Assembly (NCBI GenBank): GCA_964291285.2
Contig: OZ219787.1
Span: 1,568,001-1,632,000 of the forward strand
Origin: Alphaproteobacteria bacterium
Lineage (GTDB): Bacteria > Pseudomonadota > Alphaproteobacteria > Bin95
Direction of reading: 5' to 3'
Length of the DNA stretch: 64,000 bases
The notes beneath the pieces are model-generated. The model ran no database searches. It was not told where the DNA came from and was given only the letters and a program-made list of their open reading frames with translations. A program made the position numbers and the translations under genes. Every line of letters starts with the position of its first letter. Position 1 is the stretch's first letter. Of the stretch, positions 9,393 to 57,112 are shown piece by piece.

Positions 9393-10169
9393 TCAGCCGC
9401 CGGCGGCGAAGGAGGAGCGGAAGGCCCAGCGGGTGGTGCGCATCTCGATGAAGGCGAACAGCGCATACATGGCGATGCCCTCGATGGCGAGCGCGATCAG
9501 CCCGGCGAAGACGAGCGGCATCTGGAAGTTCGTGCCCGCGACGCTCATCAGATAGCCGATGCCGGAATTCGCGGCGATCGTCTCGGAGACGACGGAGCCG
9601 ACGAAGGCCAGCGTGATCGCGACCTTCAGCGAACCGTAGAAATAGGGCTGGGCGCGGGGGATGCCGACCTTGAGGATGATGTCCAGCTTGCGCGCGCCCA
9701 GCGCCCTCAGCACGTCTTCCAGTTCGGGCTCCGTGGTGGCGAGGCCGGTCGCGACATTCACCACGATGGGGAAGAAGGAGATCAGGAAGGCGGTCAGGAT
9801 CGCCGGAATCTCGCCGATGCCGAACCAGATGACGAGGATCGGCACGACCGCGACCTTGGGGATGGAGTTGAAGCCGACCATGACCGGGTAGAGCCCCCGG
9901 TAGATCGCCCGCGACCAGCCGACGATCATGCCGAGGACGACGCCGAACGCGACCGCGATCGCGAAACCGGCGAGCGTCGTCCACATGGTCGCCCCCGAAT
10001 GCCGGAGCAGCGGTTTCCAGTGCGTTATCGTGGCCTCGACGATGGCGGACGGCGCCGGAAGGATAATCGGGTTGACGCCGAAGAGCTGGCAGACCGCCTC
10101 CCAGAAGACGAACAGGCCGAGCGTGAACGCGAACGGGGCCGTCCGCTCGAAGAACGACGCCGGCGTCAT
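9393..10169 (-). CDS. NitT/TauT-family ABC transporter permease
   Basis: IPKVAVVPILVIWFGIG, SFFPIVVN; overlaps ATPase stop. Confidence 0.9.
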   Translation of the reverse strand: MTPASFFERTAPFAFTLGLFVFWEAVCQLFGVNPIILPAPSAIVEATITHWKPLLRHSGATMWTTLAGFAIAVAFGVVLGMIVGWSRAIYRGLYPVMVGFNSIPKVAVVPILVIWFGIGEIPAILTAFLISFFPIVVNVATGLATTEPELEDVLRALGARKLDIILKVGIPRAQPYFYGSLKVAITLAFVGSVVSETIAANSGIGYLMSVAGTNFQMPLVFAGLIALAIEGIAMYALFAFIEMRTTRWAFRSSFAAGG

Positions 10170-10927
10170 TGCCGGACCTCCGAGATGCGGCTGCGCAGGT
10201 CGTGCACGATATCCACGAACTCGGGCTCGAAGCAGACGTCGAGCTCGCGCGGCCGCGGCAGGTCGATGGCGCGCGAGGCCACGATCCTGCCCGGCCGCGC
10301 GCTCATGACATGGACCGTGTCGGCGAGAAACGCGGCTTCGCGCAGATCGTGCGTGACCAGAACCACGGTGAAGCCGATCCGCGCCCAGAGGTCGCGCAGC
10401 ACGCACCAGAGCTCCTCGCGCGTGAAGGCGTCGAGGGCCGCGAACGGCTCGTCCAGCATCAGCAGCGCCGGCTCGTGGATGAGCGCGCGGCAGAGCGAGG
10501 TCCGCTGCTGCATCCCTCCCGAAAGCTCCCAGGGAAAGCGCTCGGCGAAGCCGTCGAGGCCGACCAGCGCCAGCAGCCTGTCCGCGCGTTCGGCGTATTC
10601 CGCCCTGTTCCTGCGGAAGCGCCGGCGGTGCGGCTCGACGATCTCCAGCGGCAGCAGGACATTGTCCCGGATGGTCCGCCAGGGCAGCAGGTTCGCGTTC
10701 TGGAACGCCATGCCGGCGATCTTGACGGGCCCCTCCACGGCGGCCCCGTCCACCGCTATGCGTCCCGCGGTCGGCCTGACCAGCCCGGTGGCGAGCTTCA
10801 TCAGCGTGGACTTGCCGCACCCCGAAGGGCCGACCACGGCGGCGAAGGCGCCGCGCCCGACATTCAGGTCCAGCCCCTGGACCGCGGTGACGCCGCCGCC
10901 GGAGGCGCCCGCATAGGTGAGGGTCAC
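10166..10927 (-). CDS. NitT/TauT-family ABC transporter ATP-binding protein
   Basis: GPSGCGKST, LSGGMQQR, LLMLDEPF. Confidence 0.92.
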   Translation of the reverse strand: MTLTYAGASGGGVTAVQGLDLNVGRGAFAAVVGPSGCGKSTLMKLATGLVRPTAGRIAVDGAAVEGPVKIAGMAFQNANLLPWRTIRDNVLLPLEIVEPHRRRFRRNRAEYAERADRLLALVGLDGFAERFPWELSGGMQQRTSLCRALIHEPALLMLDEPFAALDAFTREELWCVLRDLWARIGFTVVLVTHDLREAAFLADTVHVMSARPGRIVASRAIDLPRPRELDVCFEPEFVDIVHDLRSRISEVRQ

Positions 10928-10982: not shown

Positions 10983-11037
10983 CTAAAGCCGGCGGTCCGC
11001 CGCGGGAGGCAGATAGGACGAATCGAAGACCGCCGAG
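10983..11037 (-). pseudogene. Displaced 3' end (SAVFDSSYLPPAADRRL*) of the ABC substrate-binding gene split by element copy 1
   Basis: Joined to 19290-20278 through the shared GAG it gives an in-frame 346-aa ORF ...NRPEP-SAVFDSSYLPP... Confidence 0.9.
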
Positions 11038-11065
11038 CGCACCGGTGGGTGCTAACTATCTGACA
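11029..11065 (+). repeat. Left junction of copy 1: ACC-GCC-GAG core, GCACC-N4-GGTGC hairpin, ACTATCTGACA subterminal inverted repeat
   Basis: ACTATCTGACA (11055-65) is the reverse complement of TGTCAGATAGT (19240-50); conserved in copy 2. Confidence 0.8.
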
Positions 11066-11156
11066 TGGCGTTGTTTTTTCTCCCGAAATGCAGCGGTCGG
11101 GCAAGCGGGTCGCAAGGGCCCGTTCCCCGGCTGCAACCGGAGCCGGGAGAAACGCA

Positions 11157-12281
11157 ATGGCGAAGACTACCCTCACCGAGGTCCGCGTGAAGGCGCTCAA
11201 ACCCCGCAGGTCCGTCCGCGAGGTCCGCGACGGCAGGCTCAGGGGGTTCGGCGTCCGTGTGTCGCCCTCGGGCCGCAAGCAGTTCTTCATTCACTGCCAG
11301 CATCGCGGCGTGCGCATCTGGAAGATCGTCGGCGACGCCGGGTCGATGAGCGTCACGGACGCGCGGGCGGCGGCTGCGGAGATGCTTGCCGTCATCAGGC
11401 GCGGCGGGGAGGCGCCGCTCACGCCGGGCGAGACGCTCTTCGAGGCCGTAGCCGGGATCGCGTTCCGCCGTCACGAGGGCGTCTGGAAGCCCGGAACGAT
11501 GATCGTGAACCGCAACTATCTGTGCAACCAGCTTCTGCCGCATTTCGCCGGGCGGCAGATCGCGGATATCGACCGGCAGGAGGTGAGGAACTGGTTCGCC
11601 CGCCTGCGCGCGACGCCGGTGGCGGCGGACCGGTCGATGCCGGTGCTGTCCGTCATCATGAGGGAGGCGGAGGCCATGGGCCTGCGCCCGGAAGGGTCCA
11701 ATCCCTGCCGGGGGATAAAGCGTTACCGCCGCAAGGGCCGCGAGCGGTTCCTCCCGGACGAGGAAATCCGCCGCCTGTCCGGGAGGCTCAAGGCGCATGA
11801 GGCCCGCTGGCCGCAGCATGTCGCCGTCATCCGCCTGCTGCTGCTCACGGGATGCCGCAAGGGCGAGATCCTCACCCTGCAATGGTCCGACTACCGGGAA
11901 GGCCGCCTGTTTCTCCGCGACTCCAAGACGGGGCCGAGGACAGTCTGGCTGTCGGAGCCGGCCCGGGCGGTGCTTGATCGTCTCGAGCGGAAGGGACGGT
12001 GGATACTCCCGGCATCGAGGGGCGACCGGCCCCGGAGCGGGTGCTGGCTGTTCCACTTCTGGAACCGGGTCCGCGCCGAGGCGGACCTGGAGGACGCCCG
12101 CCTTCACGATTTGCGCCATACGCATGCGAGCCTTGCCCTCAGGCAGGGCGAGACGGTGCTCGCCATCGGCAAGCTGCTGGGCCACCGCAGGCCGGAAACC
12201 ACGCTGAAATATACCCATGTCGCCGACGCCATGGTGCAGGACGCAGCCGAGACGGTCGGCGCCGTGCTGGAGGCAGACTGA
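11157..12281 (+). CDS. Tyrosine recombinase A (arm-DNA-binding N-terminus), copy 1
   Basis: GFGVRVSPSGRKQF arm domain; TGCRKGE, SKTG, LHDLRH, LLGH, KY catalytic set intact. Confidence 0.93.
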   Translation: MAKTTLTEVRVKALKPRRSVREVRDGRLRGFGVRVSPSGRKQFFIHCQHRGVRIWKIVGDAGSMSVTDARAAAAEMLAVIRRGGEAPLTPGETLFEAVAGIAFRRHEGVWKPGTMIVNRNYLCNQLLPHFAGRQIADIDRQEVRNWFARLRATPVAADRSMPVLSVIMREAEAMGLRPEGSNPCRGIKRYRRKGRERFLPDEEIRRLSGRLKAHEARWPQHVAVIRLLLLTGCRKGEILTLQWSDYREGRLFLRDSKTGPRTVWLSEPARAVLDRLERKGRWILPASRGDRPRSGCWLFHFWNRVRAEADLEDARLHDLRHTHASLALRQGETVLAIGKLLGHRRPETTLKYTHVADAMVQDAAETVGAVLEAD

Positions 12282-13426
12282 TGGCGGGCCGGGAACGGAT
12301 GAAACTCACCGACGCCGCCGTCGCCCGTCTCCGCCCCCGCGAGCGGGAATATACGGTCTGGGACACGCGCATCGCCGGTCTCGGCGTCCGGGTGCGGCCC
12401 ACCGGCGGGCGCAGCTGGGTGCTGCTGCTCGACAGGGGCGGGCGCACCAGGCGCATCTCGCTCGGCCCGGTCGGCGTGAAGAGCCTGGAGGAGGTTCGCA
12501 GGGAATGCCATGCCCGCAAGGCGAACCCCGAGCCGGAGAAAGAGGCCCGGCCGGCGCAGCCGGTCCCGCTGTTCCGGGATTTCGTCGCCGGTCCATGGAA
12601 GGAGGCGCATTTCGACGGCTACAAGCCCTCGACGCAGAGGACCGCCCGCTATCAGCTTGCGGGCCAGCTCCTGCCGGCATTCGGATCGAAGCCGCTGGAC
12701 CGCATCGGCGAGGCCGCCATCCGGCGCTGGTTCGAGCGATACAGCCGCACCTTGCCGGGCAACGCCAATCCCTGCCTTGCCCGTCTGCGGCAGATACTCA
12801 ACTTCGCCCTCGCCTGCGGCCACATCGAGGTCAATCCCGTCGGGCGCATCGCCCCGAACCGCCGCACGGCGCTCACGCGGTTCCTGTCCCGGGAGGAACT
12901 CGCACGCCTCCATGCCGCCCTGGACGCGCAGACCCGGAAGAGCGCGCGGCAGCAGGCCGACATCGTCCGCCTCCTGCTGCTGACCGGCTGCCGCAGAAGC
13001 GAGATCACGGGCCTCGGCTGGTCGGAAGTCCGCGAGGACGGGCTGGCGCTCACCGATGCCAAGACCGGACCGAGGACGGTCCCGCTCGGCAGCCGGGCCC
13101 GGGCCATTCTCGACCGGCAGCCGCGCACGGGCAGCGCGTTCGTGTTTCCCTCGCCGCGCGACCCCGCCCGCCCGCGCAGCCCGGACCTGCCGCTCTGGTA
13201 TCGGGTGCGCCGCGAAGCCGGCATCGGGGATGTCCGCCTTCATGACCTGCGCCATACCATGGCCAGCCATGCGGTCATGAACGGCGTGCCGGTCCCGGTG
13301 GTCTCCCGCCTGCTCGGCCATTCCGATGTTCGCATGACGCTGCGCTACGCCCATCTCGCCGACCGCGACATCGAAGCCGCCGCGGATCGCGTCGGGCAGG
13401 CCATGAGCGCCATCATGGAGACATGA
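12281..13426 (+). CDS. Tyrosine recombinase B (arm-DNA-binding N-terminus), copy 1
   Basis: TGATG coupling to A; KLTDAAV...WDTRIAGLGVRV; TGCRRSE, AKTG, LHDLRH, LLGH, RY. Confidence 0.93.
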   Translation: MAGRERMKLTDAAVARLRPREREYTVWDTRIAGLGVRVRPTGGRSWVLLLDRGGRTRRISLGPVGVKSLEEVRRECHARKANPEPEKEARPAQPVPLFRDFVAGPWKEAHFDGYKPSTQRTARYQLAGQLLPAFGSKPLDRIGEAAIRRWFERYSRTLPGNANPCLARLRQILNFALACGHIEVNPVGRIAPNRRTALTRFLSREELARLHAALDAQTRKSARQQADIVRLLLLTGCRRSEITGLGWSEVREDGLALTDAKTGPRTVPLGSRARAILDRQPRTGSAFVFPSPRDPARPRSPDLPLWYRVRREAGIGDVRLHDLRHTMASHAVMNGVPVPVVSRLLGHSDVRMTLRYAHLADRDIEAAADRVGQAMSAIMET

Positions 13427-13531
13427 CCGGGGCGGCCGCGGCAGACCCGCTTCTTCATGAGCGGATGGCGCCGGTCTTCTTCCTGCGCCGCACCCGGCGA
13501 CGGTGAGGTTCCCTGCTATCGTCGTGTCCGG

Positions 13532-14782
13532 TCAGAACTGTCGCACGAAGGAGAGTTCGGCGCGGTTGCGGTCGTAGTCGAGGGCCTGGGCGTTGGTATC
13601 GCGCTCCTCGCGGATGAGCGAGAGGCGGGGGCTGAAGCCGAGCACGGTGACGGCGCGGTTGTGCACGGAGAACGAGAGGGTGCGCGTCTCGTCCCGGCGC
13701 GGCCTGCGGTCGATGGTGTTGTGGGCGAAGCCCTGTCCCTGGTATGCGGCGCGCTGCAGGGAGGCGCGCAGGCCAAGGGTGAAGCCGGCCGGCAGCGCGA
13801 GCGTCGCGCCGAGGCCGGCCCGGGGTCCGCGGTTGCGCCAGTGTCCGGCATTGGCGCGGGTCCAGTTGTATCCGGCATGGCCGCCGAGGCGCAGGATCGG
13901 CAGGGCGGCCCAGCTTGCGCCGAGCGTCGCATCGCCCGCCGGGCCGTCGAGCCAGTTGCAGCCGCGGCAGTTGCGCCGGGTGGCGCTGGCGCGGGCGAAC
14001 AGGGCGAGGCGCGGCGTCAGGCGGTGCGCGCCTTCCAGCCGGACGCCGAAGCGGTCGGTCTCGGGCCGCCCGGCGGTCCATTGCCGGTCCACCACCGCCA
14101 GCAGGCTCGCCTCCGTGTTCTCGTCGATCAGCCGGCGCGGGCCGATATGGGCCGAGAGCGAATGGCGGTCGAACGCCCCGCCCTTGTATTCCCGCGCGCT
14201 GGCGTCCGCCCCGGCGCGCAGCCGCAGAGCCGGCGACAACGGAACCTGGTATTCGCCGCCGCCCCACATGGAGACGCCGATGCCCGACTTGCGCGACACG
14301 TCGCCGTCGAGGGTGAAGGGCAGGCGCCCGAACGGCGTGTCGAGGAAGACCGTGCGCTCCCCCGACGCGGCGTTGAGGTTGCTGTCGGGCGCCACCGCCA
14401 GGCCGAAATGCGCCTCCCAGCGCCGCCGCGCGCGCATGATGTCGAGAAAGCGCCGGATGTTGGCGGCCACCGCCGGCGGCGGCGTCCCCGCCAGCACCTG
14501 TTCGAAATGCCGCCGCGCCAGGCTGTCCTCCTCCTTCAGGAAGAAGGCGTGCGCGAGTTCCAGACGCACACGCACCAGGTCCGGGCGGTCCACCAGGATG
14601 GCCCGGAACGCCGCGATCGCCTCGTCGAGCTTCCCGTCGCGGGCCTCCCGGTCCGCGGCGGCCTGCGCGGCGGCAAGCGCCTCCATGCCCGCCCGGAACC
14701 GCTCGCCGGTCGCGTCCTGGCCGTGGGCCGCGGCGGCGAACAGATACAGCCCGGCGGCAATGACGAGAGCGGGTATGCGCAT
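13532..14782 (-). CDS. Slam / DUF560 surface lipoprotein assembly modifier (type XI secretion translocon), copy 1
   Basis: Signal peptide, TPR-like RVRLELA, DSNLN motif, beta-barrel ending in F; adjacent to TbpB-like lipoprotein. Confidence 0.82.
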   Translation of the reverse strand: MRIPALVIAAGLYLFAAAAHGQDATGERFRAGMEALAAAQAAADREARDGKLDEAIAAFRAILVDRPDLVRVRLELAHAFFLKEEDSLARRHFEQVLAGTPPPAVAANIRRFLDIMRARRRWEAHFGLAVAPDSNLNAASGERTVFLDTPFGRLPFTLDGDVSRKSGIGVSMWGGGEYQVPLSPALRLRAGADASAREYKGGAFDRHSLSAHIGPRRLIDENTEASLLAVVDRQWTAGRPETDRFGVRLEGAHRLTPRLALFARASATRRNCRGCNWLDGPAGDATLGASWAALPILRLGGHAGYNWTRANAGHWRNRGPRAGLGATLALPAGFTLGLRASLQRAAYQGQGFAHNTIDRRPRRDETRTLSFSVHNRAVTVLGFSPRLSLIREERDTNAQALDYDRNRAELSFVRQF

Positions 14783-14835
14783 GAAAACCCCTGTCCGTGC
14801 AAAGGGAACCTCCGGCCGCCCGGAGGGCGCCGGAG

Positions 14836-14871
14836 GAAAGAAGGCCCCGGCCGCGCGAAGCGGCCGGGGCC
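14836..14871 (-). terminator. Rho-independent terminator-like hairpin between lipoprotein and Slam
   Basis: GGCCCCGGCCGC-TTCGC-GCGGCCGGGGCC followed by TTCTTT on the minus strand; conserved at 52612-52646. Confidence 0.6.
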
Positions 14872-14898
14872 CGGGAACGCGGAGGCTACGGGAGCCGG

Positions 14899-16624
14899 CT
14901 ATTCTGCCGTCTCCGTCTTCATCCTCGTTGCGAAGGTGCCGGCAGCGTGCCCGTTCGCGAAATGGGCGTTGAACGTGCCGATCGCGCCGGGCGGACGCCC
15001 CACGCCGTCCTGGCTGTAGGTTTCAGCCTGCCACACGCCGGCCTGAGGCACTTCGCCGCCGAAAAGGGCACCACCCTGGGCAACGCCCTCGTCAAAGGAG
15101 CCTTGGCCGGCGGAGCTGGACTCCTTCTCCTGGAGCGTAACGACCCAGTCCTCGTGAACGGCATACCCCATGAAGTTGTCGATCTTTCCTCCCATTTTGG
15201 TTTTGGCGGCGCCAACCTCGAACGTCGCGTTGAGCGTTACATCCGCCGTGAACTGTCCCGACTTCTGCCCCGTGTGCTCGCCGGCGGTGTAGGTCTTCAG
15301 CACCGACAGGCCCAGGGCCTCGCCCTCGTAGGTGGCGGTCTTGGCGAGCCCGGCCTTCTCGGTGACATCCCCAGAATAGCCGGTGGGGGCGTGGGCGAAG
15401 AGACGAATCCCGAAATCCCCGCCGGTCTCATACAGCCAGTACCCGTAGCGGGCATAAGCAACGTACGCCGTGTAGTGGGAGTTGCCCAACTTCTTCTGGT
15501 AGTAGAGCGAGCTGTCGGGGACCTCTTCCCCGGCCTTCTGGAAATACAGCGAACCCGTCAGATTGCCGCCATCGACAGAGCAGGTGTCCTGGCAATGCAG
15601 CGTCCCCTTGACCCCCATGTAATGGGTATCGGCCTTGTTGTTGGTGAATGTGGGAAGCGCGGTCACGGCCGTTCCACCGCTGCCGGTGAGTACGGAAAGG
15701 GGCATCCCGGCAAGGGGCAGGACATCGACATCCATGTTGTCGGTGCCGAAGGCCTTCTTCACCAGGTTATCCGCTCCGGCGATCTGCTCCCAGGTCATGG
15801 CGTCGTCCGGGAGGCCGCGCAGGTCATACTTGTGATAGTAGATGGAGCGGCCATCGTTCTTGTCTGTGGCCGTGGAGCCGCGGACAACCTTCGTCGGTAT
15901 CTTGCCGATAAGATCGTCGATATTGCTCGCCCTCCGAAGCCACCGGGCCTCGACCTTAGCCAAGCCGTTGCTATCGGTTCGAGGCTGCAGTATGTAGAGA
16001 ACCCCCCCGTGCGCCAGCGAAGTTGCCCCGGGTCCCGTCGGCGGCGCCAGTGAGGTCGCCAGCGGGGGTTTCGCCGCTGAGGCTCTTGAGTTTCGCCTCG
16101 GTATCACGCCTCCCGGCACGATCGGTAACCGTTTTGAGATACCCCTCGATGAGCTTGATCTGCGCTTCCACGTCCTTGATCCGCTGATCGACCACCTTCT
16201 TCTGCGCCGCGAGGCCGGGCGTGCCCGACACGGCGTTCAGGTCCGTCTGCGCCTTCTTGGCGTCCGTCAGCGCCTGCTTGGCGTCCGCCAGCGCCTTCTC
16301 AGTCGCCGCCTTCGCGGCCATGATGGCCGCGGCGTTGGTTGCCATTACCCCGCTGTCGGCGCCGGTGGTGTAGACGTCAGTCCTGTTCAGCTCAGTGGAC
16401 TCGTCACGCTGCATCTTGGCCGTTTTCGCGGCATCCTCCGCCGCCTTTTCGGCTGCCGCAGCGGCGTCGTAGGCCGCCTGCGCCTTTTCGACCGGCGTCT
16501 TCTCCATCTGCTGGTCGCCGCCCATCGCCGTGGACGGCTTCTTGGACCCGCCGCCTCCGCAGGCTGCGAGCGCCAGGCCCGCAGCGGCCATCGCCGCCAG
16601 AGCCACATGTCTCATGGTTCTCAT
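14899..16624 (-). pseudogene. TbpB-like surface lipoprotein, copy 1, frameshifted (probably at the G7 tract 16002-16008)
   Basis: Lipobox LAAC-GGGG in ORF 15971-16624; C-terminal barrel in ORF 14899-16119; homologous to intact 52671-54416; G6 gives 574 aa. Confidence 0.82.
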
Positions 16625-16706
16625 CGAACCCTTCTCCTTCCTTCTCTCAAGCCCGGACAGACCGGGCAAACCGTTTGAACCGTTCCTTCGTCGCGCGAAC
16701 CGCAGG

Positions 16707-17888
16707 TCAGAAGCTCAGCGTGATGCCGGTCACGAACCCGGCGCCCTCGACATTGCTGCCGGCGGCATTTTTGCCGGTGCTGGGCGCAGGCTTGCCTCTT
16801 TCCGCCGACGGCACGCCGAAATCGTACTTGCCGGGCATCGTGCCGCGGTCCCTCTCGGCCATGAACAGCGAGCTTCTCCAGGCGATGCCCGGCGCCAGCA
16901 TGTAGCTCGCCGAAAACAGGCCGCCCGACTGCTCCGTGCCGTCGTCGGCCTCGGTCATCGTGCCGCTCAGGCTCACCGCCAGCGCGCCCTCCGAATACAT
17001 CACACCGGCGGCCACGACCTCGACATCATCCGAGGAGTCCGTCTTCATCCCGTCGTCCGCCGTGGCATAGGCGACATCGAAGCTGAACGCCCCCATGCCC
17101 ACCTGCAGGCCGGCATTCGTGAAGGTGTAGTCGTCGTCCATCTGGCTCTTCTGGTAGTGGCCCGCAGAGAACGCCAGGTTCATGTTGCCGAAATCGCCCT
17201 TGTAGTTGCCGGCGACCGACCAGGCGTCCATGTCGTTGTTCTTCACATTGCCGCCACGGCCTTCCTGCCCGGTGTTCGGGATGTAGCTCACGGCCATCTG
17301 CGCGCCGTTCACCCGCGGCGTGAAGTAGCTCACCAGGTTCCTGTCGCCGAGGCCGTGGCCCGCGGTCCCCAGGCCGGAGGGCCCGCACTCGTTGATGCCG
17401 TTGATCCATCTGCCCATGTCGCCGCAGACCATGCCGAAACCGGCATCCCGCACGCCCATGTGGGTGAGAACCACCGCGCTGTCCTCGGCTCCCAGCGTGA
17501 TCTGACCGAACTCGCCGCCAACCGTCACCTGCGACTCGTCGATCATCGAACCCGACTGACTGTTGCCCTCGAGCTCCACCTTCACCGAGAAGGTCATGCC
17601 GTTGTCGGCGTCCAGCTTGCCCTTGAAGAAGATCTCGCTGTCCGACTGCTGGGCAACGCCGCCCTCTTTCATCGCGTCCGCCTCGTCGTCCACATCGACC
17701 ATCCCGAACCACTGCTGCATGTAGCCGCCGACGCCCACGCTCAGCATCTCCGCCGCAGACGCGGGACCCGCCGCAAGCGCGAGACCCGAGGCCGCAAGAA
17801 GAACCTTGCCCGTGAAGCCCCGCGCACGGCATCCGCCATGCAGCCTGCCGTCCCCCGGCCATGCCGGGCCATGTCCTGTTGTCGTCAT
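16707..17888 (-). CDS. Alphaproteobacterial porin, copy 1
   Basis: Signal peptide, VGGYMQQWFG, DSEIFFKG, IDES, SYFTPR, terminal F; GAAGGAG RBS. Confidence 0.85.
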   Translation of the reverse strand: MTTTGHGPAWPGDGRLHGGCRARGFTGKVLLAASGLALAAGPASAAEMLSVGVGGYMQQWFGMVDVDDEADAMKEGGVAQQSDSEIFFKGKLDADNGMTFSVKVELEGNSQSGSMIDESQVTVGGEFGQITLGAEDSAVVLTHMGVRDAGFGMVCGDMGRWINGINECGPSGLGTAGHGLGDRNLVSYFTPRVNGAQMAVSYIPNTGQEGRGGNVKNNDMDAWSVAGNYKGDFGNMNLAFSAGHYQKSQMDDDYTFTNAGLQVGMGAFSFDVAYATADDGMKTDSSDDVEVVAAGVMYSEGALAVSLSGTMTEADDGTEQSGGLFSASYMLAPGIAWRSSLFMAERDRGTMPGKYDFGVPSAERGKPAPSTGKNAAGSNVEGAGFVTGITLSF

Positions 17889-18229
17889 CGTCTCGTCTCC
17901 TTCAGGTGAAAGCCCGTCCGCAGCGCCCGTCGACCGCCGCACGCCGGAGAAGGCGCACGACGGGGCGGCAGGTCACCGGGGACGGGAGGTGAAGCCGCGG
18001 CCCCGGAAAGGCCGCGGCAGAAAGCGTGCCGGGGAAAGCCGGGCCGCCCGCAAGGCGGTCATGCCGCAAGCGCGGCGGGCGCGCTCCCCGGCAACGTATC
18101 CATCTGCACGCGCCCGGCGATCCTCCGCAGAGGACGCACGGGCGGGAAACACGGAAGTCAGGCGGGAGCCGCTCTCCCGAAAGCGAACCAGCAGACCGGC
18201 GCCAAAAGCCCGCATATGAAAGACATGAA

Positions 18230-18278
18230 GAGGCGCGAGGCGCGAGGCGCGAGGCGCGAGGCGCGAGGCGCGAGGCGC
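18230..18278 (+). repeat. Heptamer tandem repeat (GAGGCGC)x7
   Basis: Counted directly; 14 units at the equivalent position in copy 2. Confidence 0.95.
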
Positions 18279-19239
18279 ATTCTACACCGTGTTCGAGCCG
18301 CTGAAGTCAAGTCCGGATACACCCGCCGCTGAGATGGCCCGGAACCTCTAACCCGGCCGCACGACACCGCACAAGCTCCCGGACCAACCCGAACGCCGAT
18401 TTTACCGGCCTGTTGCATCCGTGCAACAGTCAGCCGCCGACAGGCCCCCGCAAACCGACGCGCGCCCATCGACGACCGGCAGGCGCGGCTTTCTCCACCG
18501 GCGTGCAATGGAACGCAACAGAGCGTCCGCTGCCGCGTCTTCCCCACTCCAGGCCCGCCGCCGCCGCCAGCGGCGCATCGACAAATGCGCCGCCCTCCCC
18601 CGGGTCTCGTCCCCGCTCTCCCGGTTCGCCATCCGCCGCCGCTCGATCCGCGACAGGACCGCCGCCTCCCGCAGCACCCGGAGCAGAAGGTTCGTTGACG
18701 GACCCGCCGCCCCGCGCCTCCACCGGGCCGGCGAGCCGGTGCGCGGTGCAGCGGAAGACCGTCATGCCGGAACGATGTAGCGCGATATTTCCATGACCGC
18801 CTCGTCGGCAAGCTCCCTGATACGCGCCCACTCGTTCGCGGTCGCCATCACCGCATGCTGGGTGCGTGCGTGCGGCGGCCCCCCAGGGACCGGCTCATGA
18901 CGACGCCCCCGGACCTGCCGCAGCCATCAGAATTCCGTATTTTACTGGCAAGAAAGCTTGTATTTCTCCTGTATGAATTATGGTATTTATCCTCTCAAGA
19001 GGTGATTCAGTGCATCATCGCCATGATCCTGACTGTCTTCACATCAGGAGGGCGCTCATGCATGGAGCTATCCTCCATGCCCCCCTGAGCACAACGCATT
19101 GTCCCCATTCACTTCCCCCAGTGCCATTATCGCCTCCACGACCTCCCTGTAGGTCAATTCCGATTTCCTGCCATTGCCTCTTGTCATACCCGGAAATATC
19201 CAGTATCCAGGCCTCCTTCATGGGAGGAATGCGACCCTC

Positions 19240-19292
19240 TGTCAGATAGTGCCCTAACATAAAAAATCTCATTCGAGATTTACACCCCTGAG
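19240..19292 (+). repeat. Right junction of copy 1: TGTCAGATAGT IR, AAATCTC-ATTC-GAGATTT palindrome, ACC-CCT-GAG core
   Basis: Conserved at 56966-57017 in copy 2 except for the 3-nt core. Confidence 0.8.
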
Positions 19293-20278
19293 GGCTCCGG
19301 CCGGTTGGTGAAGTCGTATGTGACGCCGATCTGGTCGAGCGAGGTGGCCAGCCTGTCCGCATCCACACCGCCGAAGCCGTTCTGCTTCACCTCGTCGGTC
19401 ACGATATTGTCGCGGATCGCCATCTTGAGCCGTGCGAGCTCAAGCGCTTCGTCCGCGATCTCGTTGCGCTCCATGACGGACTTGATCGCGGTTTCGGGGT
19501 CGGCTACGGCGGCCTGCACGTCCTTGATGGTCGCGGCGACGAAGCCCCTGACGACTTCCGGGTTGGCCTTCGCATAGTCCGTGTTGACCATGATCGCGTT
19601 GCCGTAAAGCTTCAGCCCGTAGTCCGCCATCATCATGACCTTCACGTCTTCCGGCGCGACGCCGTTGCGGATCAGGTTGAAGTGGGACGAGAAGGAATAG
19701 CCGGTGATGGCATCGACCTCGCCGCGGGCCAGCATCGGCTCGCGCACCGGGAAGCCGACATTCTCGATCTGCACCTTGGAGGCGTCGATGCCGTTTTCCT
19801 TCACGAAGGCTTTCCACTGGGCGTAGGCCCCGTCCGGCGCCGGCGCGCCGAGGATGCGGCCTTCGAGGTCCCTGGGCTTGAGCACGCCGCGTTCCGCCGT
19901 CGAGACGATGGCGAAGGGCGGGCGGTTATAGACCATCAGCACGGCGGTCACGGGCGAGCCCGGGTTCTGGTCGAGGAACTTGGCGAGCGAGTTGATGTCC
20001 ATGAAGCCGACGGGATAGGTCCCGGCGGCGATGCGGGTGATGCCCTTCACGGAGCCGGGGCCCGAGTCGATGGTGACATCGAGGCCCTCGGCGGCGTAGT
20101 AGCCCTTGTCGATGGCGACGAAATAGGGCGCCGACGGGCCTTCGAATTTCCAGTCGAGCGCGAACTTGACGGCGGTTTCCGCGCCCGCGCCGTGGGCCGA
20201 GAGCGCCAGCGCGGCGGCCGAGAGGAGCGCGGCGCACCCGCGGCCCGGTCGGGGAAGGCGAAGACAGCGTGACATCAT
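19280..20278 (-). CDS. NMT1/THI5-like ABC substrate-binding protein, C-terminally truncated by element copy 1
   Basis: LDWKFEGP, KGYYAAEGLDV, REPMLARGEVDAITG; ends PEPSGV* using an element-derived TAA. Confidence 0.88.
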   Translation of the reverse strand: MMSRCLRLPRPGRGCAALLSAAALALSAHGAGAETAVKFALDWKFEGPSAPYFVAIDKGYYAAEGLDVTIDSGPGSVKGITRIAAGTYPVGFMDINSLAKFLDQNPGSPVTAVLMVYNRPPFAIVSTAERGVLKPRDLEGRILGAPAPDGAYAQWKAFVKENGIDASKVQIENVGFPVREPMLARGEVDAITGYSFSSHFNLIRNGVAPEDVKVMMMADYGLKLYGNAIMVNTDYAKANPEVVRGFVAATIKDVQAAVADPETAIKSVMERNEIADEALELARLKMAIRDNIVTDEVKQNGFGGVDADRLATSLDQIGVTYDFTNRPEPSGV

Positions 20279-21156: not shown

Positions 21157-21196
21157 CAGCGGTGGACGGAGCGGTAGCGGCGCGTATCGAAGGAGC

Positions 21197-35723: not shown

Positions 35724-35763
35724 GCGGTTGAGATTCTTGGGTTGGCGCGATGCGCCGGGCCCC

Positions 35764-48818: not shown

Positions 48819-48937
48819 CGCACCTGTGGGTGCTAACTATCTGACATAGCGTTGTTTTTTCTCCCGAAATGCAGCGGTCGGGGAAGCGGGTCGCAAGGGC
48901 CCGTTCCCCGGCTGCAACCGGAGCCGGGAGAAACGCA

Positions 48938-50062
48938 ATGGCGAAGACTACCCTCACCGAGGCGCGCGTGAAGGCGCTCAAGCCCCGCAGGTCCGTCCGC
49001 GAGGTCCGCGACGGCAGGCTCAGGGGGTTCGGCGTCCGTGTGTCGCCCTCGGGCCGCAAGCAGTTCTTCATCCACTGCCAGCATCGCGGCGCGCGTATCT
49101 GGAAGATTGTCGGCGACGCCGACAGCATGAGCATCGGCGAAGCGCGGGCCGCGGCTGCGGAGATGCTCGCCACCATCAGGCGCGGCGGGGAGGCGCCGCT
49201 CACGCCGGACGAGACGCTCTTCGAAGCCGTCGCCGGGATCGCGTTCCGCCGTCACGAGGGCGTCTGGAAGCCCGGAACGATGATCGTGAACCGAAGCTAT
49301 CTGCGCAACCGGCTTCTGCCGCATTTCGCCGGAAGGCCGATTGCGGAGATCGACCGGCAGGAGGTGCGGCACTGGTTCGCCCGCCTGCGCGCGGTGCCGG
49401 CGGCGGCGGACCGGTCGATGCCGGTGCTGTCCGTCATCATGAGGGAGGCGGAAGCCATGGGCCTGCGCCCGGAGGGCTCCAATCCCTGCCGGGGGATCAG
49501 GCGCTACCGCCGCAAGGGCCGCGAGCGGTTCCTCCCGGACGAGGAAATCCGCCGCCTGTCCGGGAGGCTCAAGGCGCATGAGGCCCGCTGGCCGCAGCAT
49601 GTCGCCGTCATCCGCCTGCTGCTGCTGACCGGCTGCCGCAAGGGCGAGATCCTCACCCTGCAATGGTCCGATTACCGCGAAGGCCGCCTGTTCCTGCGCG
49701 ATTCCAAGACGGGGCCCCGGACAGTCTGGCTGTCGGAGCCGGCCCGGGCGGTGCTTGATCGTCTCGAGCGGAAGGGGCGGTGGATATTCCCGGCATCGAG
49801 GGGCGACCGGCCCCGGAGCGGAAGCTGGCTGTTCCACTTCTGGAACCGGGTCCGCGCCGAGGCGGACCTGGAGGACGCCCGCCTTCACGACCTGCGCCAT
49901 ACGCATGCGAGCCTTGCCCTCAGGCAGGGCGAGACGGTGCTCGCCATCGGCCGGCTGCTGGGCCACCGCAGGCCGGAAACCACGCTGAAATATACCCATG
50001 TCGCCGACGCCATGGTGCAGGACGCAGCCGAGACGGTCGGCGCGGCGCTGGAGGCAGGCTGA
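48938..50062 (+). CDS. Tyrosine recombinase A, copy 2
   Basis: Near-identical to 11157-12281; catalytic residues intact. Confidence 0.93.
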   Translation: MAKTTLTEARVKALKPRRSVREVRDGRLRGFGVRVSPSGRKQFFIHCQHRGARIWKIVGDADSMSIGEARAAAAEMLATIRRGGEAPLTPDETLFEAVAGIAFRRHEGVWKPGTMIVNRSYLRNRLLPHFAGRPIAEIDRQEVRHWFARLRAVPAAADRSMPVLSVIMREAEAMGLRPEGSNPCRGIRRYRRKGRERFLPDEEIRRLSGRLKAHEARWPQHVAVIRLLLLTGCRKGEILTLQWSDYREGRLFLRDSKTGPRTVWLSEPARAVLDRLERKGRWIFPASRGDRPRSGSWLFHFWNRVRAEADLEDARLHDLRHTHASLALRQGETVLAIGRLLGHRRPETTLKYTHVADAMVQDAAETVGAALEAG

Positions 50063-51207
50063 TGGCGGGCCGGGAACGGATGAAACTCACCGACGCCGCC
50101 GTCGCCCGTCTCCGCCCCCGCGAGCGGGAATATACGGTCTGGGACACGCGCATCGCCGGTCTCGGCGTCCGGGTGCGGCCCACCGGCGGGCGCAGCTGGG
50201 TGCTGCTGCTCGACAGGGGCGGGCGCACCAGGCGCGTCTCGCTCGGCCCGGTCGGCGTGAAGAGCCTGGAGGAGGTTCGCAGGGAATGCCATGCCCGCAA
50301 GGCGAACCCCGAGCCGGAAAAAGAGGCCCGGCCGGCGCAGCCGGTCCCGCTGTTCCGGGATTTCGTCGCCGGTCCATGGAAGGAGGCGCATTTCGACGGC
50401 TACAAGCCCTCGACGCAGAGGACCGCCCGCTATCAGCTTGCGGGCCAGCTCCTGCCGGCATTCGGATCGAAGCCGCTGGACCGCATCGGCGAGGCCGCCA
50501 TCCGGCGCTGGTTCGAGCGATACAGCCGCACCGCGCCGGGCAACGCCAATCCCTGCCTTGCCCGTCTGCGGCAGATACTCAACTTCGCCCTCGCCTGCGG
50601 CCACATCGAGGTCAATCCCGTCGGGCGCATCGCCCCGAACCGCCGCACGGCGCTCACGCGGTTCCTGTCCCGGGAGGAACTCGCACGCCTCCATGCCGCC
50701 TTGGACGCGCAGACCCGGAAGAGCGCGCGGCAGCAGGCCGACATCGTCCGCCTCCTGCTGCTGACCGGCTGCCGCAGAAGCGAGATCACGGGCCTGCGCT
50801 GGTCCGAAGTCCGCGAGGACGGGCTGGCGCTCACCGATGCCAAGACCGGACCGAGGACGGTCCCGCTCGGCAGCGGGGCCCGGGCCATTCTCGACCGGCA
50901 GCCGCGCACGGGCAGCCCGTTCGTGTTTCCTTCGCCGTGCGACCCCGCCCGCCCGCGCAGCCCCGACCTGCCGCTCTGGTACCGCGTCAGACGCGAAGCC
51001 GGCATCGGGGATGTCCGCCTTCATGACCTGCGCCATACCATGGCCAGCCATGCGGTGATGAACGGCGTGCCGGTCCCGGTGGTCTCCCGCCTGCTCGGGC
51101 ATTCCAGTGTGCGCATGACGCTGCGCTACGCCCATCTCGCCGACCGCGACATCGAGGCCGCCGCGGAACGCGTCGGGCAGGCCATGAGCGCCGTGCTGGA
51201 GACATGA
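50062..51207 (+). CDS. Tyrosine recombinase B, copy 2
   Basis: About 10 substitutions vs 12281-13426; catalytic residues intact. Confidence 0.93.
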   Translation: MAGRERMKLTDAAVARLRPREREYTVWDTRIAGLGVRVRPTGGRSWVLLLDRGGRTRRVSLGPVGVKSLEEVRRECHARKANPEPEKEARPAQPVPLFRDFVAGPWKEAHFDGYKPSTQRTARYQLAGQLLPAFGSKPLDRIGEAAIRRWFERYSRTAPGNANPCLARLRQILNFALACGHIEVNPVGRIAPNRRTALTRFLSREELARLHAALDAQTRKSARQQADIVRLLLLTGCRRSEITGLRWSEVREDGLALTDAKTGPRTVPLGSGARAILDRQPRTGSPFVFPSPCDPARPRSPDLPLWYRVRREAGIGDVRLHDLRHTMASHAVMNGVPVPVVSRLLGHSSVRMTLRYAHLADRDIEAAAERVGQAMSAVLET

Positions 51208-51307
51208 CCGGGGCGGCCGCGGCAGACCCGCTCCTTCATGAGCGAATGGCGCCGGTCTTCTGCCTGCGCCGCACCCGGCCCGATGCTGCCGCTATCGGCG
51301 TGTCCGG

Positions 51308-52558
51308 TCAGAACTGTCGCACGAAGGAGAGTTCGGCGCGGTTTCGTTTGTAGTCGAGGGTCTGGGCGTTGGTATCGCGCTCCTCGCGGATGAGCGAGAG
51401 GCGGGGGCTGAAGCCGAGCACGGTGACGGCGCGGTTGTGCACGGAGAGCGAGAGGCTGCGCGTCTCGTCCCGGCGCGGCCTGCGGTCGATGGTATTGTGG
51501 GCGAAGCCCTGTCCCTGGTATGCGGCGCGCTGCAGGGAGGCGCGCAGGCCGAGGGTGAAGCCGGCCGGCAGCGCGAGCGTCGCGCCGAGGCCGGCCCGGG
51601 GTCCGCGGTTGCGCCAGTGTCCGGCATTGGCGCGGGTCCAGTTGTATCCGGCATGGCCGCCGAGGCGCAGGATCGGCAGGGCGGCCCAGCTTGCGCCGAG
51701 CATCGCATCGCCCGCCGGGCCGTCGAGCCAGTTGCAGCCGCGGCAGTTGCGCCGGGTGGCGCTGGCGTGGGCGAACAGGGCGAGGCGCGGCGTCAGGCGG
51801 TGCGCGCCTTCCAGCCGGACGCCGAAGCGGTCGGTCTCGGGCCGCCCGGCGGTCCATTGCCGGTCCACCACCGCCAGCAGGCTCGCCTCCGTGCTCCCGT
51901 CGATCAGCCGGCGCGGGCCGATATGGGCCGAGAGCGAATGGCGGTCGAACGCCCCGCCCTTGTATTCCCGCGCGCTGGCGTCCGCCCCGGCGCGCAGCCG
52001 CAGGGCCGGCGAAAGCGGAACCTGGTATTCGCCGCCGCCCCACAGCGAGACGCCGATGCCCGACTTGCGCGACACGTCGCCGTCGAGGGTGAAGGGCAGG
52101 CGCCCGAACGGCGTGTCGAGGAAGACCGTGCGCTCCCCCGACGCGGCGTTGAGGTTGCTGTCGGGCGCCACCGCCAGGCCGAAATGCGCCTCCCAGCGCC
52201 GCCGCGCGCGCATGATGTCGAGAAAGCGCCGGATGTTGGCGGCCACCGCCGGCGGCGGCGTCCCCGCCAGCACCTGTTCGAAATGCCGCCGCGCCAGGCT
52301 GTCCTCTTCCTTCAGGAAGAAGGCGTGCGCGAGTTCCAGACGCACCCGCACCAGGTCCGGGCGGTCCACCAGGATGGCCCGGAACGCCGCAATCGCCTCG
52401 TCGAGCTTCCCGTCGCGGGCGTCCCGGTCCGGGGCGGCCTGCGCGGCGGCAAGCGCCTCCATGCCCGCCCGGAACCGCTCGCCGGTCGCGTCCTGGCCGT
52501 GGGCCGCGGCGGCGAACAGATACAGCCCGGCCGCAATGACGAGAGCGGGTATGCGCAT
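51308..52558 (-). CDS. Slam / DUF560 translocon, copy 2
   Basis: 416 aa, near-identical to 13532-14782. Confidence 0.82.
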   Translation of the reverse strand: MRIPALVIAAGLYLFAAAAHGQDATGERFRAGMEALAAAQAAPDRDARDGKLDEAIAAFRAILVDRPDLVRVRLELAHAFFLKEEDSLARRHFEQVLAGTPPPAVAANIRRFLDIMRARRRWEAHFGLAVAPDSNLNAASGERTVFLDTPFGRLPFTLDGDVSRKSGIGVSLWGGGEYQVPLSPALRLRAGADASAREYKGGAFDRHSLSAHIGPRRLIDGSTEASLLAVVDRQWTAGRPETDRFGVRLEGAHRLTPRLALFAHASATRRNCRGCNWLDGPAGDAMLGASWAALPILRLGGHAGYNWTRANAGHWRNRGPRAGLGATLALPAGFTLGLRASLQRAAYQGQGFAHNTIDRRPRRDETRSLSLSVHNRAVTVLGFSPRLSLIREERDTNAQTLDYKRNRAELSFVRQF

Positions 52559-52670
52559 GAAAACCCCTGTCCGTGAAAGGGAACCTCCGGCCGCCCGGAG
52601 GGCGCCGGAGGAAAGAAGGCCCCGGCCGCCTGAAGCAGCCGGGGCCTGAACCGGATGTTCCGGGAGCGGG

Positions 52671-54416
52671 CTACTCTGCCGGCGCCTGTATCCTCGTCGA
52701 GAAGGCGCCGGCAGCCGACCCGTTCGGGAAATGGGTGTTGAAGGTGCCCAGGTAACCGGCCGGGCGCCCCACGCCGTCCGGGCTGAAAGGGGTACCCTGC
52801 CAACTGCCGGGCTTGTCGAAGGCGGTGCTGCCGCTGGAACCCGTGGCCAAGCCCTCGGCATCGAAGCTGACATGCTTTGTCTGCGCGAGCTTGACGCTCC
52901 ACTTCTCGTCGACGGCATTCCCCATGAAGTTGTCGATCTTTCCTTCTATTTTGGGATCAGCCCCGAACTTGGCGTTGAGCGTCACATCCGCCGTGAACCG
53001 TGCGGTCTTCTGCCCCGTGTGCTCGCCAGCGGTGTAGAGCTTCAGCGCCGACAGGCCAAAGGCTTCGCCCTTGTAGGTGGCAGTGTTCGGGAGAGTGGTG
53101 CTCTTGCCGTAATCTCCGCGACTGACGGCAGGGCTGTTTGCCATGACCGCAATCCCGGTGGTTGTGCCGGTTCCATACAGCCAGTACCCGTAGCGGACAT
53201 AGCCTTGGTACTCCGTGTAGTGGGAGTTCCTCGGCGTTATCCAGTAGTAGCGATACGAGCCCGCGTAGCCATCGTCGAATTCGTCGGCCGCCTTGAAGAA
53301 CAGGTTGCCGGTCAGCTTGCCGCCCTCGGCAGAGCATGTGCCCTGGCAATACAGCGTCCCCTTGACCCCCTTGTAATACTGGTCGGCGAGCATGCCGCCG
53401 GTGAGCGTGGGATACGCCGTCAGGGCCGTTCCGCTCGAGTCGGTGAGTGAGGACAGGGGCATCCCGGCAAGGGGCAGGACATCGACATCCATGTTGTCGG
53501 TGCCGAAGGCCTTCTTCACGAGCATCCCATCCTTGGCGGCAATCTGCTCCCAGGTCATGACGCCGGCCGGGAGTTCGCCATCGTCATACTTGTGATAGAA
53601 CATGGATCTCCGATCGGCGACCTCCCCGGTGGCGATGACCTTCCTCGGCGGCATGGAGACCCCGGAGAGGGTCCCTGTCGGCCTCGGACTGTACTGAGAC
53701 GTGCCGTTTTTGCCATCGTAACCGCCGGTGCGGGTCGAGCCGGAGCGAGCTGAGGCCGCAGGCGACAAGGTATCAAGCAGCCGCCTCGCGGGCCTTGACG
53801 ATGTAGCGTTGTCGAAGCCAGCGGTAGCGAGGGTTTCGCCGGCGCGGTCCTTGATTTCCGCCTCGGTATCGACCCTCGAGAAATAGTCTCCGATCGTGCC
53901 GGCCCCGGTCAGGGTCTTCTCGATGGCCTTGATCTCCGCTTTCACTGTTTCGATCTGACCCGTGACCACCTTCTTCTGCGCCGCAAGGCCGGTCGTGCCG
54001 GCCGGCAGGGCGTTCAGGTCCGTCTGCGCCTTCTCGGCCGCCGTCAGCGCCGCCTTGGCGTCCGCCAGCGCCTTCTCGGCCGCCGCCTTCGCGGCCGTCA
54101 CGAGCGCGGCGTTGGTCCGGACCACCGAGCTGTCGCCGCCTGTATAGTAGATTTGCTGAGCGAATTGGGGCGGCTCGACCGCCTTCTTGACCGCGGCCAG
54201 CTGAGCTTCCGCTTCCTTCTTGGCATCCATCGCCGCCGTCTCGGCTGCCGCGGCGGCGTCGTAGGCCGCCTGCGCCTTCTGGACGTCCGTCATCTCCATC
54301 TGCTGGTCGCCGTCCATCGGCGCGGCCGCCTTCTTCCCGCCACCGCCTCCGCAGCCCGCGAGCGCCAGGCCCGCAGCGGCCATCGCCGCCAGAGCCACAT
54401 GTCTCATGGTCCTCAT
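52671..54416 (-). CDS. TbpB-like Slam-dependent surface lipoprotein, copy 2 (intact, 581 aa)
   Basis: Lipobox LAGC-GGGG, Ala/Lys coiled-coil stalk, C-terminal barrel ATYKGEA...FTADVTLNA...GTFNTHF...AGAF. Confidence 0.83.
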   Translation of the reverse strand: MRTMRHVALAAMAAAGLALAGCGGGGGKKAAAPMDGDQQMEMTDVQKAQAAYDAAAAAETAAMDAKKEAEAQLAAVKKAVEPPQFAQQIYYTGGDSSVVRTNAALVTAAKAAAEKALADAKAALTAAEKAQTDLNALPAGTTGLAAQKKVVTGQIETVKAEIKAIEKTLTGAGTIGDYFSRVDTEAEIKDRAGETLATAGFDNATSSRPARRLLDTLSPAASARSGSTRTGGYDGKNGTSQYSPRPTGTLSGVSMPPRKVIATGEVADRRSMFYHKYDDGELPAGVMTWEQIAAKDGMLVKKAFGTDNMDVDVLPLAGMPLSSLTDSSGTALTAYPTLTGGMLADQYYKGVKGTLYCQGTCSAEGGKLTGNLFFKAADEFDDGYAGSYRYYWITPRNSHYTEYQGYVRYGYWLYGTGTTTGIAVMANSPAVSRGDYGKSTTLPNTATYKGEAFGLSALKLYTAGEHTGQKTARFTADVTLNAKFGADPKIEGKIDNFMGNAVDEKWSVKLAQTKHVSFDAEGLATGSSGSTAFDKPGSWQGTPFSPDGVGRPAGYLGTFNTHFPNGSAAGAFSTRIQAPAE

Positions 54417-54498
54417 CGAACCCTTCTCCTTCCTTCTCTCAAGCCCGGACAGACCGGGCAAACCGTTTGAACCGTTCCTTCGCCGCGCGAAACGCCGC

Positions 54499-55599: not shown

Positions 55600-55950
55600 C
55601 GTCTCGTCTCCTTCAGGTGAAAGCCCGTCCGCAGCGCCCGTCGACCGCCGCACGCCGGAGAAGGCGCACGACGGGGCGGCAGGTCACCGGGGACGGGAGG
55701 TGAAGCCGCGGCCCCGGAAAGGCCGCGGCAGAAAGCGTGACGGGGAAAGCCGGGCCGCCCGCAAGGCGGTCATGCCGCAAGCGCGGCGGGCGCGCTCCCG
55801 CGCGCTGCCCGGCAACCTGTCCATCTGCACGCGCCCGGCGCTCCTCCGCAGAGGACGCACGGGCGGGAAAGACAACAATCAGGCGGGAGCCGCTCTCCCG
55901 ATGGCGAACCGGCAGACCGGCGCCAGAAGACGGCATATGAAAGACATGAA

Positions 55951-56048
55951 GAGGCGCGAGGCGCGAGGCGCGAGGCGCGAGGCGCGAGGCGCGAGGCGCG
56001 AGGCGCGAGGCGCGAGGCGCGAGGCGCGAGGCGCGAGGCGCGAGGCGT
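55951..56048 (+). repeat. Heptamer tandem repeat (GAGGCGC)x13 plus GAGGCGT
   Basis: Counted directly. Confidence 0.95.
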
Positions 56049-57014: not shown

Positions 57015-57112
57015 GAGGCGGCGATGCGCGCGCCCTCGGCGTCGGAACAGCCCGCCGCAGCGAAGGCTTCGCCGATCAGGGATTCGGCGGTTTCGACCGG
57101 TATGCGGGGCAC
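57015..57112 (-). pseudogene. 5' part (MPRIPVETAESLIGEAFAAAGCSDAEGARIAAS) of the Ldh_2 dehydrogenase
   Basis: GTG at 57112 with GAGGAG RBS; continues in frame into LVSANLAGHDSHG when the element is removed. Confidence 0.9.

Follow-up and report, generated by a model that had tools for sequence, protein, structure and literature searches.

An integrative element carrying a pair of P4-type tyrosine integrases splits the substrate-binding protein gene of an ABC importer in an alphaproteobacterium

Analysis of a 64,000-nucleotide stretch of the genome of an Alphaproteobacteria bacterium (assembly GCA_964291285.2, contig OZ219787.1, positions 1,568,001 to 1,632,000; hereafter the window, by which the whole stretch is meant) established that an 8,249 bp element, designated copy 1 (11038..19286, plus strand), is located within the gene for the substrate-binding protein of an ATP-binding cassette (ABC) importer. 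We consider, with a probability of roughly 85%, that copy 1 arose by the fairly recent insertion of an integrative element which resembles a transposon and is moved by tyrosine recombinases through site-specific recombination, without a transposase. This reading is adopted because the interruption is absent from all 11 orthologous loci compared in relatives, because the pieces of the gene and the genes downstream of it are still open, and because the element belongs to a multicopy family that occupies many sites. Homology with a second copy in the window (copy 2), together with homology to 19 left and 14 right ends in other parts of the genome, was used to set the limits of copy 1. There is no sign of the interruption being regulated or adaptive.

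The 5′ part of the interrupted gene (19280..20278, minus strand) encodes an NMT1/THI5-type binding protein (Pfam NMT1, 2.8e-41) whose likely start is the methionine at 20278 (Met44; a further ATG lies upstream at 20407), and whose N-terminus, when taken from Met44, resembles a signal peptide. On direct reading the minus strand continues into the right end of the element as TTC ACC AAC CGG CCG GAG CCC TCA GGG GTG TAA (FTNRPEPSGV and a stop), the stop codon at 19280-19282 being located within the element. The displaced 3′ end of the gene (10983..11037, minus strand), which was also read directly, specifies SAVFDSSYLPPAADRRL and a stop codon at 11036-10983 (TCG GCG GTC TTC ... CTT TAG); these are the last 16-17 codons of the gene, they match the C-termini of the 11 orthologs, and they are separated from the 5′ part by 8,249 bp. 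In the truncated binding protein GV replaces the last 16 residues. Deletion by coordinates of the element together with one 6 bp junction segment generated a single open frame ending in NRPEPSAVFDSSYLPPAADRRL and a stop, which measures 346 aa if begun at Met44 (20278) and 389 aa if begun at the first ATG (20407). A preliminary description of this DNA had read the gene as ending in NRPEP-SGV within the right end of the element, had placed its true tail at 10983-11037, some 8.25 kb away and directly before the ATPase and permease genes, and had predicted a 346-aa frame and a rejoined operon upon removal of the element; direct reading, coordinate deletion and the 11 intact loci, in each of which the ATPase gene is adjacent, agree with it on all of these points, the end coordinates included.

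The ABC ATPase gene (10166-10927, minus strand; Pfam ABC_tran) begins 55 nt past the displaced 3′ fragment and is part of the same operon as the permease gene (within 9393-10820, minus strand; Pfam BPD_transp_1) and the gene for the NMT1-type binding protein, a composition that corresponds to an importer of the NitT/TauT type. In the NCBIfam scan the binding protein gave weak SsuA/taurine-binding matches, far below the cut-offs, and a substrate was not assigned. As a result of the insertion the ATPase and permease genes (9393..10927) have lost their connection to the binding-protein gene and to its promoter and, as 8.2 kb now separates them from that promoter, the transporter has most likely been inactivated. 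No decay was detected in the window's own genome (G000), where both pieces of the binding-protein gene, the ATPase gene and the permease gene are still open. The split gene is adjoined by a 1,126-aa open reading frame (21197-24577, minus strand) which encodes several fibronectin type III domains and is situated in a stretch of 75-79% G+C.

A protein search over 41 genomes, namely G000 and 40 relatives, identified, in 12 other genomes of the genus, close orthologs of the binding protein (E below 1e-198, 86-97% identity), and the orthologous loci of 11 of these genomes were compared, with the twelfth genome (G001) left out. All 11 orthologs are uninterrupted and share the C-terminus NRP[E/D]PSAVFD[S/P]S[Y/W]LP[P/A]AADRQL, and when the rebuilt protein was compared with these homologues all of them were found to continue as PSAVFD..AADRQL, while none ends at PEPSGV. 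At the DNA level the uninterrupted site reads TCGAA[G/C/T]ACC-GC[C/G]GA[G/A/C]-GG[C/A/G]TCC in the 11 relatives, and the ATPase ortholog lies directly downstream of the binding-protein gene in each locus, at 98-104 nt after the end of the alignment in ten and at 293 nt in one. An interruption was encountered in 0/11 of these same-genus loci, including one whose protein is 97% identical.

These intact loci bear on the two options that the preliminary description had left side by side, a recent insertion or a reversible switch of the skin/nifD type. Elements such as skin (in sigK) and the nifD element are largely immobile, occupy a single site in differentiating cells and serve a single purpose, and by analogy copy 1 would be kept at its site and excised under defined conditions so as to switch the transporter on. 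Like these elements, and like the comK prophages that undergo "active lysogeny", copy 1 carries recombinase genes, lies inside a coding sequence and would rebuild the gene upon precise excision; recombination between attL and attR would be expected to restore an open frame with either junction hexamer, as PSAVF or PSGVF, and both the undecayed gene pieces and downstream genes and the two intact integrases are what such a switch would call for. Unlike them, it is multicopy, occupies many targets and sits in a host for which no link to differentiation is known, and conservation of the interruption at the same gene in relatives, which is characteristic of the skin/nifD type, was seen in none of the 11 loci. 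In addition, the family is present at many unrelated sites, often within other repeats, copy 2 splits an unrelated gene, and no regulator or excisionase was recognised in the Pfam and NCBIfam scans. A programmed switch is on these grounds most improbable, and of the two options it is the recent insertion, with its empty site in 11/11 relatives, open gene pieces and multicopy family, that gains support.

The proteins that are likely to move the element are encoded at its left end. IntA (374 aa; 11157..12281, plus strand; Pfam Arm-DNA-bind_3 4.2e-10, Phage_int_M/SAM-like, Phage_integrase 7.5e-19) and IntB (381 aa; 12281..13426, plus strand; Arm-DNA-bind_3 1.3e-8, Phage_int_M, Phage_integrase 1e-21) both display the arm-binding (DUF4102), SAM-like and catalytic domains of P4-type tyrosine integrases, and the catalytic R..H-x-x-R..H..Y residues are present in both proteins of copy 1. 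The start codon of intB overlaps the stop codon of intA by 1 nt (TGATG), such that the genes are translationally coupled, and the two proteins are paralogs with 38% identity, which accounts for direct-repeat families spaced 1,136 nt apart in the window. No transposase family was found among the open reading frames of the element in the Pfam and NCBIfam scans. The left terminus CGCACCGGTGGGTGCTAACTATCTGACA (11038..11065, plus strand) contains the subterminal repeat CTATCTGACA at 11056-11065, and the same 10-mer recurs in inverted orientation near the right end at 19240-19249; in the window it is found only near both ends of each copy, in inverted arrangement (4 matches as against 0.77 expected). 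On the left the conserved terminus may be written as CGCACC...CTATCTGACA, and on the right as TGTCAGATAG...GAGATTTACACC, where the last five bases of the element (19282-19286) are ACACC.

Comparison of the junctions with the empty sites allowed host and foreign sequence to be told apart. On its host side the left junction, attL (11027..11037, plus strand), consists of the ACACC-like pentamer AGACC (11027-11031) followed by the crossover hexamer GCCGAG (11032-11037), whereas the right junction, attR, carries the hexamer CCTGAG (19287..19292, plus strand), which by comparison with the 11 empty sites is not derived from the host and has only C..GAG in common with the host hexamer. In the relatives the latter reads GCCGAG (4/11), GCCGAA (3), GCGGAG (3) or GCGGAC (1), that is, with one or two positions differing, and it is preceded by ACACC, AGACC or ATACC; as the pentamer is present in these empty sites, it belongs to the host target and not to the element. 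At the site of copy 2 the host hexamer AGCGAG is found in 9/11 relatives, again at attL, and attR carries AGAGAG. The host hexamer is therefore at attL and a differing one at attR in both of the informative sites. Beside near-identical right ends the hexamers vary from copy to copy (CTCGAG, GGAGAC, AGAGAG, CGGGAG and others), as expected if the element acquires the segment at one site and brings it along to the next. A fixed overlap of 7 bp was rejected for copies 1 and 2, since attL would then be chimeric.

The preliminary description had removed the element with one GAG. This yields the right product, and GAG indeed flanks both ends of both window copies, as it would had a classical transposon generated a 3 bp target duplication. 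Such a duplication was nevertheless rejected, as the comparison of junctions contradicts it: the bases at the three positions preceding GAG are not the same in the left (GCCGAG, host) and right (CCTGAG, foreign) junctions and the host has one version only, other copies have junction hexamers without GAG (e.g. TTCCAG/TTCCAC, GCGCC, ACGGC), and an ACACC-like pentamer of the host, located at a fixed distance, is a feature of recombinase sites. With two integrases present in place of the transposase that was not found, we attach a negligible probability to this explanation. GAG is instead the shared part of a 6 bp crossover segment whose other bases differ.

The same target was recognisable throughout the family. 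Among 62 distinct left junctions, drawn from the window's own genome and from 52 related loci (L023-L074), an exact ACACC is located 4-8 nt upstream of CGCACC in 53, as compared to 0.27% of random positions, and ACACC or a near match precedes the CGCACC terminus by a few bases at every left junction. In 39 junctions ACACC and CGCACC are spaced 6 nt apart, in 11 the distance is 5 nt and in 2 it is 7 nt, and element subfamilies may differ in the spacer length of the joined form. In other subfamilies both junctions are fully identical to the target, for example ACACC-CCTGAA, ACACC-GCGCC and ACACC-ACGGC, and several of these copies are located inside repeats with about 24-25 uninterrupted copies.

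Based on this anatomy we propose that the ends of the element are joined to form attP (...TTTACACC-N5-6-CGCACC...), which the integrases would pair with a host site of the form ACACC-N6 before strands are swapped across the short segment. Identity would chiefly be needed at the CGCACC-proximal bases (GAG in this case), while mismatches elsewhere would be tolerated, and the integrase-proximal junction would then keep the host hexamer and the distal junction the hexamer brought from an earlier site. The integrases of Tn916 and CTnDOT are known to tolerate mismatches in the crossover segment, as a consequence of which their two junctions differ, and CTnDOT needs a short conserved host motif beside the segment together with a few identical bases at one side of it. 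The element resembles both in its tolerance of a heterologous crossover segment; unlike Tn916 and CTnDOT, which are large, conjugative and equipped with a single Int plus Xis, it is an 8-kb element with two integrases and without conjugation genes.

Copy 2 (8,193 bp; 48819..57011, plus strand) is located 37.8 kb from copy 1, with which it forms direct-repeat families of 75-100% identity. It interrupts an Ldh_2-family dehydrogenase gene of the malate/L-lactate dehydrogenase type some 30 codons after the start, leaving pieces at 47819-48823 and 57018-57110 (both minus strand); the Ldh_2 match (8.6e-96) begins at profile position 29, and the N-terminal piece lies across the element. The site of copy 2 is also empty in 11/11 relatives. 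When the whole genome was searched with copy 1, 66 matching places were obtained, and element ends numbered 19 left and 14 right by BLAST, or 25 left and 21 right by a motif scan of which the weakest matches may be due to chance. Seven pairs of a left and a right end could be formed, spanning 8.2, 8.2, 10.1, 10.1, 21.6, 36.3 and 38.8 kb, and from these differences in span it follows that the same ends and integrase pair carry variable cargo. Many copies are situated inside other multicopy repeats, each with about 20-25 uninterrupted copies, and always at ACACC (e.g. C1:412420, C1:1146194, C2:1395569, C4:518087, C5:343421 and C5:400414 of G000); the survey of uninterrupted repeat targets within the genome covered the first 13 of the 21 left ends. 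At one such repeat site (…CTTCTTCCACACC-GCGCC…) four insertions are present, each on a different contig, which could be due either to repeated hits or to the spread of a composite.

In a genome with so many repeats a misjoin during assembly might in principle have placed the element inside the gene, and an estimated contamination of 4.77%, as well as the metagenome-assembled nature of the relatives in public records, would be in keeping with such an artefact. The flanks of copy 1 are, however, exact complementary halves of one gene which meet at the true termini of the element, and attL and attR show the same anatomy as those of other copies, neither of which is expected of a misjoin. Sequencing runs were also matched to positions 19000-24000, a segment spanning the right junction: of 21 runs, three from one study contained 82-86% of the sampled words and the other 18 contained 5-10%, although these three may be the source data of the assembly and so do not count as independent support. 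Taken together, an assembly artefact is regarded as extremely unlikely.

A search of public genomes with IntA identified 52 related loci, all in uncultured Alphaproteobacteria, some of them labelled Defluviicoccus sp., and often with several loci per genome. In 48 of these 52 loci intB begins within 22 nt after intA, the left terminus is conserved in 40 when a strict motif is applied, and the R-H-R-H-Y residues are retained at every covered position in IntA (52 loci) and IntB (49 loci), each position being covered in 49-51. More distant tandem integrase pairs with about 36-39% identity and the same overlapping layout were located on a megaplasmid of Shewanella oneidensis MR-1 (L099; 3834-5131) and on a plasmid of Aurantiacibacter atlanticus (L100; 3779-5119). 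In the Shewanella pair the first gene is nearer to IntA and the second to IntB, an orthology from which it follows that the integrase pair is old. At both loci ACACC followed by a CGC-rich word precedes the first integrase gene by 170-280 nt, and these sites may be junctions of the same kind in hosts that can be cultured.

Among known systems the closest likeness is to strand-biased circularizing integrative elements (SE), namely SE-6283 and SE-6945 of Gammaproteobacteria, which are described as small, devoid of mobilisation genes and moved by two tyrosine recombinases encoded at their left end, with a joined form in which a 6 bp spacer separates the terminal motifs (PMC10214605). According to the same account the integrase-proximal end is bordered after insertion by the host's central 6 bp and the distal end by the 6 bp that the element imports, an arrangement likened there to Tn554, and recombination between attL and attR proceeds without an empty donor site (PMC10214605). 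As far as this description goes, copies 1 and 2 agree with SE in the placement of the host hexamer (proximal) and the foreign hexamer (distal) at 2/2 informative sites, in the 6 bp segment that would separate the terminal motifs once the ends are joined, in the imperfect inverted repeats near the ends, in the two left-end tyrosine recombinases and in the lack of mobilisation genes. They depart from SE as described there in that the SE core consists of intA, tfp, intB and srap, with tfp between the integrase genes, whereas here intA and intB overlap and are followed by a gene for Slam on the opposite strand; the family scans recognised no tfp- or srap-like gene, although no search aimed at tfp or srap was made, and the core operon intA-tfp-intB plus srap is lacking. 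Going by that account, SE also encode one ordinary and one large recombinase, as opposed to proteins of 374 and 381 aa that are both P4-type with an arm-binding domain, and SE were reported only in Gammaproteobacteria, with 1-2 copies per replicon at few sites, as compared to about 19-25 copies at many ACACC sites in this alphaproteobacterium. With two informative sites, the SE-like placement is indistinguishable from one of two outcomes that would be expected of a Tn916-like heteroduplex.

Tn554 of Staphylococcus is described as having two adjacent tyrosine recombinases, both of which are required, no target duplication, and a junction sequence of 6-7 bp that travels with the element (PMC10214605, PMC3414803). 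By these descriptions the element is comparable to Tn554 in its adjacent recombinase pair, in the absence of a target duplication and in a junction segment carried between sites; it differs in that Tn554 is described with a long TnpB, a TnpC, one strongly preferred site and a Firmicutes host. The short TnpA, the TnpB of about 600+ aa and the TnpC that identify the Tn554 family have no counterpart here, as the integrases measure 374 and 381 aa and are not followed by a third conserved small gene. The recombinase in trio (RIT) elements, presented as putative mobile units with an array of three tyrosine recombinase genes, all in one orientation, at one end (PMC3414803), share with the element, on that portrayal, the co-orientation of such genes at one end. 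The same applies to GInt elements, with which three recombinase-like genes and four essential genes are reportedly associated. Three adjacent co-oriented genes of the recombinase type were not found, there being two only, followed by the Slam gene (13532-14782) on the minus strand. In function the element would act like multi-integrase elements such as SE and Tn554 and like the heterology-tolerant integrases, and is not a member of SE, Tn554, RIT or GInt; it is a new variant among tyrosine-recombinase transposons. No description of an element with two P4 integrases and an ACACC target was encountered in the full-text literature search, which turned up SE, GInt, RIT/BIM and Tn554, and this negative is limited to that search.

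Integrase-driven elements such as Tn916 and other integrative and conjugative elements excise precisely, and if copy 1 were cut out as a circle at a low rate, a minority of cells would regain an intact gene, the frame being restored with either hexamer, as a by-product of mobility and without any programme. Set against this are the SE elements, the closest working two-recombinase analogues, which according to their description leave no empty donor site (PMC10214605), and the high copy number, which fits a copy-out mechanism better than cut-out; we give unprogrammed reversibility rather less than an even chance. It may also be, as a tentative suggestion that we would not favour at present, that the family constitutes an undescribed class of tyrosine-recombinase transposons, with an obligate P4-type IntA/IntB pair that is conserved from Alpha- to Gammaproteobacteria, a requirement for ACACC and about 3 bases of identity, and a strand-biased copy-out like that of SE and Tn554. 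If this were true, it would explain the host hexamer at attL, the foreign hexamer at attR and the build-up of some 20 or more copies in a genome, and recombination by the element itself would never repair the split transporter gene.

Several observations weigh against the interpretation of copy 1 as a recent insertion by an integrase-driven element, or against parts of it. The genome contains no second copy that is identical to copy 1; the best partial matches in it reach 95% and copy 2 is a mosaic of 75-100%, so that "recent" is a relative term. The junction rule is based on two sites, and a further copy on contig C5 proved uninformative, as the repeat in which it lies (20 or more copies) has uninterrupted members with CGCGAG, CGGGAG or CGAGAG, and the hexamers of both its junctions thus recur among empty targets. 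The variable spacing between ACACC and CGCACC (5, 6, rarely 7) is not explained by a fixed 6 bp overlap alone. A joined-end attP junction, either circular or tandem, was not present in the genome, and a search of public metagenome contigs for GAGATTTACACC-N5-7-CGCACC returned 54 loci, 0/54 of which had element ends on either side, such that these are chance matches, in a collection from which relevant samples may be missing. No excisionase-like gene was recognised among the open reading frames of the element, and its mobility is deduced from its distribution only. Finally, the truncated binding protein might still work, the loss of function being a prediction.

Mobile elements routinely knock out genes, and the finding as stated, an insertion and not a switch, is ordinary. 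Its value lies in the fact that, for a little-known element with two integrases, copies 1 and 2 provide clean sets of attL, attR and attB, the last represented by 11 empty sites for each copy, and that these sets reveal a host-owned ACACC-like pentamer, a crossover segment tolerant of mismatches and a junction asymmetry as in SE and Tn554. What could otherwise only be termed vaguely an "integrase island" becomes a testable model of a promiscuous transposon with an integrase pair, and integrases with a 5 bp target requirement are of interest as tools for genome engineering.

Between the integrase genes and the right end, copy 1 carries a set of cargo genes on the minus strand, the first of which encodes a Slam (surface lipoprotein assembly modifier) outer-membrane protein (13532..14782; Pfam SlipAM 1.4e-19, TPR_Slam) with a GC3 (G+C at third codon positions) of 0.92. 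It is adjoined by two open reading frames (14899..16669) of 406 aa (14899-16119) and 232 aa (15971-16669), for which no Pfam or NCBIfam family was found other than a weak "lipo-invert tail" match (9.7e-4) below the cut-off, and whose products are, from their position, possible candidates for Slam substrates. The last cargo gene specifies a Gram-negative porin (16707..17942; Pfam Porin_4 9.8e-36). By its predicted content the cargo (13532-17942) appears to be a mobile cassette for the export of surface lipoproteins.

The conserved right-end module of about 500 bp (18770..19286, plus strand), which ends in GAGATTTACACC, has counterparts of 78-100% identity at the 14 right ends in the genome. It includes an open reading frame of 77 aa and of doubtful reality (18855-19088, plus strand), which is open in 11 of the 12 full-length non-self copies and is just 60-75% identical between copies at the protein level; it could be a small gene or, alternatively, the region could represent non-coding arm sites. 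No Pfam or NCBIfam family was assigned to the open reading frames of the module. Elsewhere in the window, at 35001-36000, the G+C content falls sharply to 0.52 as compared to about 0.69 for the window.

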